Of a DNA stretch of 64,000 bases, positions 8,794 to 58,704 are shown piece by piece. The translations under genes were made by a program, and so were the position numbers. The number at the start of each line of letters is the position of its first letter. Within the stretch, counting starts at the first letter, position 1. The stretch spans positions 18,414,001-18,478,000 of the forward strand of contig NC_042999.1 in assembly GCF_006345805.1 (NCBI RefSeq). Direction: 5' to 3'. Below the pieces are notes generated by a model. It searched no databases and was not told the origin of the DNA. It saw only the letters and a program-made list of their open reading frames with translations. The DNA is from Octopus sinensis (Eukaryota).

Positions 8794-8856
8794 AGATAAA
8801 ACTCTGAGTTTCAGATGCCGAAGTGGAAATCCACAACACCATCTCTTCGGTTATCT
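8794..8856 (-). ncRNA. Type I hammerhead ribozyme-like motif in left pLTR
   Basis: AGAUAA | CCGAAGA | GAUG..CAUC(U) | GAAACUCAGAGUU | UUAUCU; perfect 6-bp stem I. Confidence 0.7.
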
Positions 8857-9050
8857 GGCTATTTGAAAACGTTATGAAAAAATACCGTTAAAAATGAAGG
8901 GAAATTACTCTGTTATAACTCTGCTTTGCCTGCGTACTTATACATCGCTCGCATTTTTCGTCATAAAAATTATATAAAAATACATAAAAATATATAAAAA
9001 TATATAGAAATATATAAAATCTTCTTGGGACATAACACAGAAAGCATGTT

Positions 9051-11110
9051 CTATCCGTTTTCTTTAGGGGACCAAAAACGTAAGAGAAATTTAGTCACAT
9101 GTGGGCATGATCCGAAAAGCTCTGTCCTTGTATTTAGACATGTGGTAGGGTCTAAGCTGCTTTTCCAGATAAGCCATCTCTCCATGTCGCATAAACCGCA
9201 CCTTCCGCTGCCGTTAGTGTAGGGCTTACATCTGGCCAAAATCTTCCATTGTATGTTATAATCGACACCTTTATCTCTTAAAGACCAAATATGATTGGAT
9301 AATTGTGTCGCTTTTCTTTTGTTCCAGTGCCCAAAGCTCAAAGTGTGGTTATTGAACCTGGCCTTGAAATTACCCTCTGTCAGGCCCACGTATTTCTTCG
9401 TCGAAACGGTGTCTTTAGTGGTTATAGAGTTTACGGTAGCTTCATATATGATGGTCTTGGACATGCAAGCTCCATTTAGCGGGCACAATTCTTTATTCCT
9501 GCATGAACAGCTGTTTTCTTCTTGTGTTTTTTGTATGTTATGATTGATTATGTTTTTGAAATTGGTAGTTGAACTAAAACTAATTTTTAAATTGTGTCTA
9601 TTGAAGAGTTTCCTATAAGCATGGTTAACTGGAAAATGTCTATCTATCAGTGCTAGGAAATATTTACCTATATTGAAGGCCACCTCGGGTGAGTAAGGGG
9701 GCGTAAACCAGATGACCTTCCTATTTCTATTATTCCTTTTCCTTACTGTTGGGCTGGTGATAGGTGTATATTTTATTTTTTCGCTAAAACCACTATCTTT
9801 TAAAGCTTTATTATAAACTGGGGCAACGCTATTGAAGATGTCCTCATTGGATGAGAGGCTAGAAATCCTCTTACTAATATTTTTAACTAAATTTTTGAAT
9901 ACTATAGGGGGATGGCATGAACCTACATTAATATAACTTAGTCTATCATTGGGCTTCCTATAAGGCTTATAAATATTATTATTAAGATCTAAGGAAACGT
10001 CTAAGAAATTGACAACCGTCAGGTTAGTGTCTATAGTTATACTAAGTCCGAAGTGTTTCATTAACTGGATAATATCCTTCCTAAAACGATCTTGTGCTGG
10101 TCCATTTGTATTAGCTGTTAAGGCGAGGGCATCATCTTTGTAGATGGCGAAATGTACGTTACGGAATGTCTTACCGAAGGTATCTAGGAGAAAGAGTCCA
10201 ATTAGATCACAGATGCCTGCCCCATCATATGAACCCATGCTCACATCGAAAGCGCCCTCCGTGTCGGTGTTTTTTACCCACTTTGCATTCTCACTGAAAA
10301 GTAATGTCTTTCTAGCATGGAAGATTATATCCTTATCATTGGTACTAATTTCTATGAAGTCACTAGCGAAGATTAGGGCTTTATCTAGCAGTTCTTTAGA
10401 GATAGAGGCATAAAAATCAACAATATCGAATTGTGTAAACCTCGCTTTTTTCTTATTCTTAATAGCTTTAAACCAGTCTACGACTTCTATACTATTGGAC
10501 CATTGCACTAGCCTAGTATCGGTCTTAATTTTCGTATTTATTCTATCTAAAATTTCTTTGCTAATAATCCCTAGTTCTGACTTGGCTGGGTTGATAAGCC
10601 TACATTTAGGGTTGGAAAGGAAGTTTTCTTTGTGATCTTTAATAGTAATAAAGGCCTCTTTTTGGGGGAGGGTTTCTATTTTTTTATCTAATTTAAGTTT
10701 AGCGGCGATGACGCTAGCTTCTTTATTAATTTCGTTATATGTCTGTGCCCTAGCCTTAGTATAATTATTAGTAATGCTGTTGTGTAAGAGTTGTGTGTAT
10801 TTGCTGTTATCTACCAGGTATAAGTTCTTGGTTTTATCCGAAAAAAGTGCTTTTTTCTTGGAGCTTTTTATATGATCAATATCTATTTTCAATTTATGTT
10901 GGAAATTGTTAAAAGACTTACGAAACTTTATTTTGCTCATGATCTTCAGCAGGTCCGCTTCGAAATCTTCCAAGCCTTTAATCCTAGGAGGAAATTTTTT
11001 GGATTTTATCCGATAGAAAATGTTTTCCTTGGTGTTCGCTTCTGTGTCAAAAAAGAAAGCCTTCCATCTCATACGCTTAATTACATCAGTAATTTTTTGC
11101 AGAAGTTTCT
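9051..11110 (-). CDS. Penelope-like reverse transcriptase + GIY-YIG endonuclease, 5'-truncated (frame stays open upstream of M at 11072 to the inversion junction)
   Basis: RT motifs FDIVDFY, MGSYDGA, YKDD, NFLDV; CSCR..CPL..C linker; IIY..YVG..R..H..CGLC endonuclease; upstream in-frame KKLLQKITDVIKR-MRWKA. Confidence 0.95.
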
Positions 11111-12484
11111 TATTGTTGATTTTTATGCCTCTATCTCTAAAGAACTGCTAGATAAAGCCCTAATCTTCGCTAGTGACTTCATAGAAATTAGTACCAATGA
11201 TAAGGATATAATCTTCCATGCTAGAAAGACATTACTTTTCAGTGAGAATGCAAAGTGGGTAAAAAACACCGACACGGAGGGCGCTTTCGATGTGAGCATG
11301 GGTTCATATGATGGGGCAGGCATCTGTGATCTAATTGGACTCTTTCTCCTAGATACCTTCGGTAAGACATTCCGTAACGTACATTTCGCCATCTACAAAG
11401 ATGATGCCCTCGCCTTAACAGCTAATACAAATGGACCAGCACAAGATCGTTTTAGGAAGGATATTATCCAGTTAATGAAACACTTCGGACTTAGTATAAC
11501 TATAGACACTAACCTGACGGTTGTCAATTTCTTAGACGTTTCCTTAGATCTAATAATAATATTTATAAGCCTTATAGGAAGCCCAATGATAGACTAAGTT
11601 ATATTAATGTAGGTTCATGCCATCCCCCTATAGTATTCAAAAATTTAGTTAAAAATATTAGTAAGAGGATTTCTAGCCTCTCATCCAATGAGGACATCTT
11701 CAATAGCGTTGCCCCAGTTTATAATAAAGCTTTAAAAGATAGTGGTTTTAGCGAAAAAATAAAATATACACCTATCACCAGCCCAACAGTAAGGAAAAGG
11801 AATAATAGAAATAGGAAGGTCATCTGGTTTACGCCCCCTTACTCACCCGAGGTGGCCTTCAATATAGGTAAATATTTCCTAGCACTGATAGATAGACATT
11901 TTCCAGTTAACCATGCTTATAGGAAACTCTTCAATAGACACAATTTAAAAATTAGTTTTAGTTCAACTACCAATTTCAAAAACATAATCAATCATAACAT
12001 ACAAAAAACACAAGAAGAAAACAGCTGTTCATGCAGGAATAAAGAATTGTGCCCGCTAAATGGAGCTTGCATGTCCAAGACCATCATATATGAAGCTACC
12101 GTAAACTCTATAACCACTAAAGACACCGTTTCGACGAAGAAATACGTGGGCCTGACAGAGGGTAATTTCAAGGCCAGGTTCAATAACCACACATTGAGCT
12201 TTGGGCACTGGAACAAAAGAAAAGCGACACAATTATCCAATCATATTTGGTCTTTAAGAGATAAAGGTGTCGATTATAACATACAATGGAAGATTTTGGC
12301 CAGATGTAAGCCCTACACTAACGGCAGCGGAAGGTGTGGTTTATGCGACATGGAGAGATGGCTTATCTGGAAAAGCAGCTTAGACCCTACCACATGTCTA
12401 AATACAAGGACAGAGCTTTTCGGATCATGCCCACATGTGACTAAATTTCTCTTACGTTTTTGGTCCCCTAAAGAAAACGGATAG
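11111..12484 (+). pseudogene. Inverted second copy of the RT-EN 3' two-thirds, with a 1-nt frameshift near 11551
   Basis: Starts at IVDFYAS; gatctaat versus gatcttaat in the left arm; remainder identical in protein. Confidence 0.92.
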
Positions 12485-56650: not shown

Positions 56651-58521
56651 CCGAGAATTTCGAATTAAATAATGGTCAGCAGCAAGCATTACAATAGAAT
56701 TGCCCCTTGGGTTGCTCATTCACACAACTAACTATTTAACATGTTTTAAATTTAAACTTTTTATTATGTCTTTCCGTTATCTATTCATATATGTACTGGC
56801 ATTTATATTTTTACAAGGCCAGCAACTTCGGAGAAGGGGTTCAGTTGATTACATCGAATCTCGTGTTCAGCTAGTTCTTATCAACTTTCGAAAATAATGC
56901 AAGGCAAAGCTAACCCCGGCAGAGTTAACATCTCTGTTTAATTAAAAATGGGTATAGAATGTCGCTATAATATTCACAGCAAACTACTTAAGCAATATGT
57001 GGAAGAGATTTAATAGCTTCAATACGAAAATGAGGCATCACTTTCTTTCGGTTACTTTCTTGTTTTAGATTTCATTATTCAAAAATATATAAAAAATATA
57101 TGAGATCGTATGAACTTCAATTTTGAGACCTAATAACCTTTTTTTCTTTATCTGCACATCGAAAAATGAGTGTGGAATCAAGTTACTTTTCAGTTTATAT
57201 GTACTTGATAATACTCAGTCTCCAAATGTTTTCAGGTACTCTCGTATTGAACTCGGTCTTTATACAAAAAAGCAATTTACACTAAAACCAGGCACTAAGA
57301 TTTACCGAAAAATATTTATTTCGTTTCTTATATTTTCATTTAATTTGTTATGTCTTGGGACTTATTTATTATTTGCTTTTCATGTACGTGCCTTTATGGT
57401 TATTCTTCAATTCTTCAGCATTAAGGCAATATTCCATAAGAAACTAATTATAAAACATTGAAGCTTATTGTTGTTCATACTATGCCTTAGCAATAAAATG
57501 CACTCGTTTCATTTATATAATTAAAAGTTAATATTTTTTGTGAATGGAAAAATAAACGGTACAGAGTACGTTTAATATATTCACATCCAATGTATACAAG
57601 TGCTTTTTCGAGAACTCGCCAGAAATATTGTCGTGTCAGTGCTTCATAAAAAATGCAATAAAAATTTATTCAAATATGTATATTAGGAGTCAAACATGAA
57701 GATTACATTTTTTCTTATTTTTTAACTATCATTAATGTGCATTCCAAAAAGTTCAGTCATAGAAAATTGTCGAAAAGACTTAAGGAACTTGATGAGTGAC
57801 ATACCATTTCCTGGTTTTCTACTTTAAAATTTTAAGATGAATATAATGAAAGCAGTTTATTGCGATGCCTTTAAAATCATTCATTGTTTGATGTATGTAC
57901 TTGTCATTTCATGTCATTTCTTTGTTGTATCATAAAATCCTTTCTTAAACAACACGACAGGTCTGCCACGTTGACTTGCCGAACAATCAGCCCTGACAAA
58001 TTATAAGTAAGACAAGTTTTAAATCTGTCGAAACAATAAGCTAAGCCTGTTATATGTTCAAATGTATATTATACATATATTTAAACAAAAATGGTACTTC
58101 ACATGTAGAGAAAATAATCTGCAGCAGCTGAATGTAAGGTCTGATATATGCAGAAATACACCTACGGTAAAAGCGATGACTTTAATATCGAGCATCGACA
58201 AGGTATCGATAAAAACAACACATGCAACAATATACAAATATTCGCGCAAATATGTATGTATATATATATATCTATATATATATATATATATATATATATA
58301 TAACTAATGTAGGATAAAATTCTTTTCGGGAAAAAAATTTTATCAATGGCCAGCATATCAAAAAATACCTTTAAAGGTTACATTTATAAATACTTTACAA
58401 GATAAGGGCAAACGAAAAATTCTAATGCCAAATATGCCGAAAAAAAGACAAAACTTTTCAATAACCATTATAATTTATGCGTCTCGAAACAAACCGATAG
58501 AAATCTCTAAAAAGTCCGTTA

Positions 58522-58582
58522 TTACCGTATTGGTTCAATTTCGGGGTTAATTAATAATAAATGTTCCCCTCTTCAGCGGCAA
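58522..58582 (-). ncRNA. Type I hammerhead ribozyme with canonical core
   Basis: UUGCCG CUGAAGA GGGG..CCCC GAAA UUG aac CAAU A CGGUAA: all three stems pair, AUA cleavage triplet. Confidence 0.85.
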
Positions 58583-58643
58583 ATACGCGAGATATAAGTG
58601 AAATACTTACTCATACCCACGGAAAACGCAAGCACTAAGTCTT

Positions 58644-58704
58644 TTGCCGTTGAAGAGGGGAAAATTTCATATTAATTAACCCCGAAATTGGACCAATACG
58701 GTAA
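58644..58704 (+). ncRNA. Hammerhead ribozyme copy with a C3U core change
   Basis: UUGCCG UUGAAGA GGGG..CCCC GAAAUUGGACCAAUA CGGUAA. Confidence 0.7.

Follow-up and report, generated by a model that had tools for sequence, protein, structure and literature searches.

Does a cluster of hammerhead-like motifs with unusual catalytic cores record the decay of once canonical ribozymes, or were the unusual cores already present in the elements that spread them? This question is raised by a 64,000-nucleotide stretch of the Octopus sinensis genome (NC_042999.1, positions 18,414,001 to 18,478,000; hereafter the window), which is rich in TA and CA microsatellites and in which a first-pass annotation had listed a dozen hammerhead-like motifs with at least five core variants. 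Following these motifs through the 2.72-Gb assembly, we find that the variant cores U4C, A6U and G3-C8 were already carried by founder elements, whose amplification gave thousands of copies. The window holds about 13 hammerhead motifs, four of them relics or truncated, which fall into six families (A to F), and the hammerheads of all six families are type I and lie at the 3′ ends of repeats inserted in (TA)n.

Every listed motif is present in its place, but the pairs at 8794/12679 and at 58522/58644 are not independent, since each consists of the two arms of one inverted insertion. The number of variants is also smaller than was claimed. Of the seven listed cores, one is canonical (CUGAAGA), one is a private change and the rest reduce to three variants at founder level, with CCGAAGA, CCGAUGA and CCGACGA representing the single variant U4C and differing only at the free position 7. 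Two cases that the list did not single out, a compensatory G3-C8 swap and a fixed A6U, prove the most telling. The 3-8 base pair is kept throughout, as C-G in families A to E and as G-C in F. The strict core (CUGANGA, GAAA and UH) is present in B and in the U4 subfamilies, and is departed from by A, C2/C3 and most of D (U4C), by E (A6U) and by F (G3 and C8), all of which are therefore filed here as hammerhead variants rather than canonical members. A strict CUGANGA search would indeed miss the U4C motifs, as had been anticipated, and the assignment of short-stem-III type I hammerheads with palindromic stem III to the 3′ ends of Penelope-like elements (PLEs) is likewise supported: D, E and F have an unpaired base after A9, G10.1-C11.1 and a short palindromic stem III.

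Variant cores in amplified families

A strict type I scan of the window that tolerated two core mismatches recovered 5 motifs, 4 of them with a score of at least 8; 20 dinucleotide shuffles gave 0.05 motifs of that score per window. The others required family hidden Markov models, which recovered 13 motif-bearing places and one inverted arm piece. The three-helix junction is in type I order. A further relic outside these places, at 173-256(-), comes from a different and very abundant family whose minimal hammerhead is canonical (also at loci L398, L412 and L415). The same scan gave 8 matches in a random 400-kb sample of the genome, too few for statistics. No hammerhead family appeared among the 150 of 227 Rfam matches listed for the window, and the microRNA matches in that search were dismissed as microsatellite or hairpin noise.

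Genome-wide, the cores were counted with one right-hand anchor for all, the search patterns holding A9 and the right-hand half-core constant (matches to the reversed pattern in parentheses). The canonical core yields 19,975 matches (1,207), U4C 11,524 (1,098) and A6U, from one family, 22,595 (1,174). C3U gives 2,752 (1,840), G5A 1,360 (1,772) and A6G 1,045 (589), and cores lacking G8, counted with a tighter anchor, give 825 (178), mostly through CpG decay. Thus, only U4C and A6U are amplified in these counts, with the changes G5A, A6G, C3U and those at G8 near background. A looser U4C pattern is mostly background (25,349 versus 18,371). With the common anchor, U4C and A6U together account for 34,119 matches, more than the canonical core, so strict descriptors undercount the hammerheads of this genome.

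These numbers bear directly on the possibility that the variant cores are chance look-alikes or canonical hammerheads that decayed after insertion. Such decay is real for single copies, namely UUGAAGA at 58650, CCAACGA at 27489, both window copies of family E and the core deletion at 24071. However, the variants are near-fixed in thousands of copies and track subfamilies, and the shuffle and reversed controls are near zero (0 to 5 matches for the reversed family patterns). Decay at the level of families is refuted by the near-fixed counts, and as a general explanation we consider this reading very improbable.

The U4C variant was proposed to recur in three families of the window, and this is borne out at the founder level for A, C and D. 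Family A occupies an inverted insertion in (TA)n at 8768..12840, the 5′-truncated remainder of a PLE. Its hammerhead lies on the minus strand at 8794..8856 (first core nucleotide 8850), with the core CCGAAGA, stem III ACUC-A-GAGU and a predicted cut after GUU, and is repeated on the plus strand at 12679..12741 (first core nucleotide 12685) in the second arm; the arms are 99% identical. Between them is a reverse transcriptase (RT) and GIY-YIG open reading frame (ORF) at 9051..11147(-), 698 aa from stop to stop, whose 5′ end was lost at the inversion. Because its RWK, DKT, CxCX5C and CxxC motifs fit the clade description in the consulted part of PMC8557442, and given the (TA)n targeting, we call A a young Hydra-clade PLE, an assignment made from motifs and target site. 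A Pfam search with the protein returned no match. There were 901 genome candidates at first look, the best 40 being 99-100% identical. CCGAAGA is in every family A copy within 30 loci, a sample biased to the query; the main group carries it in 17/17 copies, and three more diverged copies carry U4, so that the direction of change was probably U4 to C4 (n=3). A relic of an A-related hammerhead is found at 47790..47850(+) (site 47797). In passing, a 2,619-nt contig from one sequencing run (X1, matching window 11900-12840) closes on itself with an implied unit of about 2,588 nt, which may reflect either tandem DNA or circular RNA, and runs under four organism labels contain the family A element at about 99% identity with the same core.

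The family C hammerhead, at 46963..47008(+) (first core nucleotide 46971), has the core CCGAUGA, a 2-bp stem II with a GCAA loop and a GUA site, within an insertion with an inverted tail at about 46870-47038. An A-like ORF stands upstream of the motif in 3/30 loci, and its 34-50% identity to the ORF of A is the only link between C and the Hydra clade. The C pattern matches 6,774 times genome-wide (control 5), a count that includes A-type and other sequences. Its subfamilies are distinguished by position 4 and the base before GAAA: U4 with A (29/30), C4 with G (23/23), and mostly C4 with U (8/11). This covariation (window 46971-46990; L161-L190) may represent linked subfamily marks, or perhaps an alternative pairing that closes the core. 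The most diverged C group is mostly C4, and the abundant group of 1.4% divergence is U4.

Family D appears to be the 3′ end of a Neptune-like PLE, to judge from the linker (CX2-5CxxC) and the CCHH-type Cys/His pattern of its GIY-YIG domain, both also present in E; Nematis elements share the linker. The window contains a 5′-truncated element at 24353..27612(+) comprising the GIY-YIG C-terminus (24372-24776), a CA-rich 3′ untranslated region, the hammerhead and (TA)n. This hammerhead (27485..27519(+), first core nucleotide 27489, GUC site) descends from the founder core CCGACGA+A and now reads CCAACGA by CpG decay, and a second copy, at 36940..36973(-) (first core nucleotide 36969, GUU site), retains the founder core. 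All 20 ORF-bearing genomic copies fetched have the motif 2.8-3.3 kb downstream; an in-frame TGA in the ORF matches is the normal stop, not selenocysteine. A 20-mer of D that excludes positions 3 to 7 has 10,228 exact copies genome-wide, and is preceded by CCGAC in 17 and by CTGAC in 10 of 32 copies. When a tree of 62 copies was built with positions 4 and 5 removed, U4 fell mostly in one long-branched group (4 changes, versus 14.4 when shuffled) and a short-branched young group was entirely C4, from which we read the direction in D as U4 to C4.

U4 and C4 subfamilies thus coexist in four lineages, namely A, C, D and the tandem family H, which lies outside the window. The suggestion that U4C is a tolerated or selected variant appears to hold for its first part. 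It does not look favoured, since each lineage has U4 sister subfamilies, and the toggling of position 4 argues for tolerance, not preference.

The A6U variant is a property of family E, whose two window copies are both damaged: one at 27945..27980(-) (first core nucleotide 27975) has the core CUGUUGA+A with a private GCAA for GAAA, and the other at 53588..53623(-) (first core nucleotide 53618) has private G5C and CAAA changes on the A6U founder. Genome-wide there are 20,894 matches to the E pattern; among the first 100, U4 is found in all, U6 in 98 and A6 in none, and position 7 takes all four bases. Because the base at position 7 sorts with diagnostic changes in the flanks, it changed in founders. 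A linker and endonuclease similar to those of D lie upstream in 3/30 loci.

Family F carries the swap. Its window hammerhead, at 56592..56642(-) (first core nucleotide 56635), reads GUGAACA+G, with stem II GUCGC/GCGAC and the palindromic stem III AAUAUU, and stem I reaches up to 7 bp in the family. A 5′-truncated copy at 52614..52770(+) (site 52665), with an inverted arm, has lost the core. Genome-wide F has 4,703 matches, with G3 accompanied by C8 in 92 of the first 100. A U3-A8 subfamily was considered and rejected, as the 18 double-changed matches contained only single copies of this kind. No ORF was found in the F loci examined, and the ends are of PLE type, with inversions, two 3′ termini and TA targets. 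An older relative (L368-L397; 30/56 matches aligned), about 21% diverged, shares stems I and II, and its homology to F is proposed from the motif only. By eye, its 56 matches comprise 31 U3.G8, 7 C3.A8, 6 U3-A8, 3 C3-G8 and no G3-C8, and one subgroup has A7-A8.

Slow ribozymes, dispensable passengers or a structural fold

What, then, do these founders use the motif for? We lean, with modest confidence, towards the interpretation that the motifs are attenuated type I hammerheads, slow self-cleavers predicted to act as dimers or with a protein of the element. Selection on founders would, in that case, keep the 3-8 pair, G5, G12-A14, A15.1-U16.1 and a position 17 other than G. The near-background counts of G5A, A6G, C3U and G8 changes, the free position 7 and the absence of G17 make the founders look selected as hammerheads. 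Position 17 varies between U and C in D founders and between A and U in E founders, with G17 in 0/34 and 0/46 incidental copies, respectively, and G17 is reported to impair minimal hammerheads (PMC3884650, in part). On incidental copies the motif of D is better conserved than its flanks (p=0.02).

Only low activity would be needed if, as described for a PLE in the consulted part of PMC11167929, uncut RNA is the dominant template for insertion. Reverse transcription would start downstream of the motif and most copies hold both sides of the predicted cut, implying that the elements can do without rapid cleavage and might even suffer from it. Alterations of the CUGA U-turn, of which U4 and A6 are part (PMC9901934, in part), slow cleavage. 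Rate-lowering changes such as U4C and A6U could consequently be fixed, and changes that abolish the active fold could be fixed only when compensated (G3-C8); the C3G/G8C swap is described as the one double mutant of this region to be rescued (PMC9901934, in part) and as giving partial rescue in a PLE hammerhead (PMC11167929, in part). The palindromic stems III would pair neighbouring copies, or alternatively the PLE protein would chaperone them. The same source states that a PLE hammerhead needs protein to cleave.

RT followed by GIY-YIG signatures tie A, D and E to PLE ORFs in genomic copies (for E, endonuclease and linker), inversions occur in A, B, C and F, and all six families lie in (TA)n. 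In A, C and F the motif is about 40-130 nt upstream of two 3′ termini. Among about 35 distinct F loci in the first 100 of 250 aligned sequences, 5 have a 5′ junction exactly at the predicted cut and 7 have one no more than a base away, and an exact junction is found in 3/33 C loci in the first 100 of 298, both counted by eye; in both families TA microhomology blurs these positions.

The location of the motif near the 3′ termini, the presence in insertions of the sequence flanking the predicted cut and the dependence of a PLE hammerhead on protein would also be expected if the PLE ribonucleoprotein retained the fold for its structure or for binding protein, positioning the template by the sites where RT starts, with catalysis lost in the variants. 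Nevertheless, the avoidance of G17 and the retention of the 3-8 tertiary pair are constraints of the kind that catalysis imposes, and we regard a purely structural role as improbable.

Several observations weigh against slow self-cleavage and founder selection. Minimum free energy folds of the window monomers are mostly not the hammerhead fold; cofolding two copies gains 3-12 kcal/mol, a value obtained with no control run alongside, and is hammerhead-like only for A and C. Family C has a stem II of 2 bp, stem I has lost a pair in one F subgroup, and in the youngest D subfamily the 4-bp stem I acquired a mismatch once U4C was in place. The E motif is not significantly more conserved than its flanks on incidental copies (5/26 versus 17/41, p=0.07), with p=0.0006 reached only when pattern-selected copies are included. 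Covariation in the stems, proposed as a check, is seen as two-sided changes between B and its sister B2 in all three helices, but these amount to one event, the pair measure gave 151/500 shuffles, and there is little covariation within D, E and F. Moreover, the genome-wide counts are of copies and not of events, of which there are about six: position 4 switched between U and C some four times, and A6U and the swap arose once each. Published work adds to these points. All single and double mutants of the CUGA region except the C3G/G8C swap are low in activity in the part of PMC9901934 consulted, U4C and A6U among them, and the corresponding part of PMC11167929 describes hammerhead mutants that insert normally in vitro, so that founders could drift, and no RNA-seq ends at the cut.

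Such drift forms the basis of a further explanation, that the hammerhead is dispensable, selection on it relaxed, and U4C and A6U loss-of-function hitch-hikers in successful founders, the rest of the core seeming conserved only for want of time for more founder changes. In addition to the normal transposition of mutants in vitro and the low activity of CUGA single mutants, the progressive erosion of stem I in young D and the weak statistics for E fit this explanation, as does the success of Naiad PLEs lacking canonical hammerheads (PMC8557442, in part). It is harder to reconcile with U4C in four lineages, whereas no family has amplified with G5A, A6G, C3U or a change at G8; U4C also makes a CpG that decays in copies. 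Furthermore, E shows repeated changes at N7 and H17 beside neighbours that stay fixed, and the double transversion that restores the 3-8 pair in F would be hard to reach by drift. Relaxed selection therefore seems to us unlikely, though a better candidate than the structural role. Attenuated hammerheads under founder selection remain the interpretation that we favor. A bolder proposal, which we advance tentatively from the cores and their copy numbers, is that retroelements here depend on hammerheads whose cores would count as crippled by in vitro rules (a natural G3-C8, an A6U family of over 20,000 copies, and U4C gained or lost in at least four lineages), all cleaving in vivo with the help of the element's protein or a dimer partner; CUGANGA would then be too narrow a description of the natural working core, and standard descriptors would fail to see most of the minimal hammerheads in this genome.

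The insertion of mutants in vitro (PMC11167929, in part) raises the question whether PLE hammerheads need to cut. The sister subfamilies described here differ at single core positions (U4/C4 in four lineages, A6/U6 in related families) and are natural matched pairs that could test it. Structural work engineered a rescue to prove the 3-8 pair, and the G3-C8 family would provide its counterpart in nature.

Tandem units and relation to known elements

Family B has the canonical core. In the window it forms an inverted insertion (58295-58838) with one hammerhead at 58522..58582(-) (first core nucleotide 58576, CUGAAGA, AUA site) and another in the other arm at 58644..58704(+) (first core nucleotide 58650), whose UUGAAGA is a private C3U change, since C3 is kept in 30/30 other copies (CTGAAGA in 28/30). 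A relic with the core deleted lies at 24035..24352(+) (site 24071). Elsewhere in the genome units of B, about 370-500 nt long, are joined head to tail, in one case as a trimer, and no ORF was found in the loci examined. A reading of 58441-58785 and 52614-52765 as miniature inverted-repeat transposable elements was rejected in favor of inverted PLE-type ends.

Family H, found at L428-L431 (G000:C1:3709500-3712800 and others) and L402-L411, forms tandem arrays with units of about 545-560 nt. It carries a type I hammerhead with stem III ACGUACGU, its subfamilies have U4 or C4 with U, C or A at position 7, and its longest stop-free frame is 77 aa. One C4 array has C-G at a stem I pair where others read U.G or U-A. 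At one locus (L428:1100-2300), contigs of run X14 show 45 T>C versus 14 A>G places, with no DNA control, an excess in the direction expected of A-to-I editing on the strand that bears the motif. Isolated U4C hammerhead-like motifs from other families occur at L432, L436 and L437.

PLE hammerheads and retrozymes are already known, and U4C is natural elsewhere. B and H, as short head-to-tail units without a long ORF and with one type I hammerhead each, resemble non-LTR (long terminal repeat) retrozymes (Cervera and de la Peña 2020, PMC7229834; bioRxiv 10.64898/2026.07.22.740005; both in part), and B resembles them also in its 6-bp stem I and 4-bp stem II. Put at about 470-560 nt and known here from tandem DNA, the units exceed the 150-450 bp given for retrozymes, and one H subfamily is, unlike those, U4C.

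Families D, E and F resemble the minimal hammerheads of metazoan PLEs (Cervera and de la Peña 2014, PMC4209133, in part) in core, unpaired nucleotide after A9, G10.1-C11.1, GAAA, palindromic 15.2-16.2 and UH. Those hammerheads also reside in PLE terminal repeats, in thousands of dispersed copies, and were proposed to act as dimers of low activity. Their published consensus, in the part consulted, is CUGANGAH with one natural covariation, U3-A8 in Schistosoma, whereas U4C, A6U and G3-C8 are fixed here. Family A resembles the Hydra-clade hammerheads (Craig et al. 2021, PMC8557442, in part) in RWK, DKT, CxCX5C and (TA)n targeting. With several rows of File S2 of that work, A and C share the ACUC-N-GAGU stem III as well as additional nucleotides beside stem II, and stem I of C (CUGU/ACAG) is that of Hydra-2_aMil; compensatory differences separate stem III of A from that of Hydra-1_oBim. 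All Hydra rows in the consulted part of File S2 have CUGA, whereas A and part of C have CCGA.

As for the variants themselves, the consulted part of Perreault et al. 2011 (PMC3088659) describes U4C in a viroid, reduced in vitro and sufficient in vivo, A6C in a phage with an observed rate below 0.1/min, and natural U3-A8, and does not name A6U or G3-C8 as natural. Those variants are rare isolates, and the ones reported here are amplified families. G3-C8 is known as an engineered rescue (PMC9901934 and PMC11167929, both in part).

The surveyed literature, mostly open-access, showed no A6U, natural G3-C8 or PLE U4C. A 2017 study by Lünse, Weinberg and Breaker may list them; to go by its title, it concerns numerous small hammerhead variants of PLEs, reportedly active as dimers.

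Finally, some features of the window are of local interest. At 24035-28050 a B relic, the D element and an E copy abut inside TA tracts, and shared microsatellite targeting likely explains the local density of motifs. Short frames at 7251-7619(+) and 43724-44224 resemble DNA-transposase remnants. An inverted repeat at 18358-19014 surrounds degenerate TTAGGG-like repeats, and a 100-bp unit is present in three tandem copies at 48087-48384.

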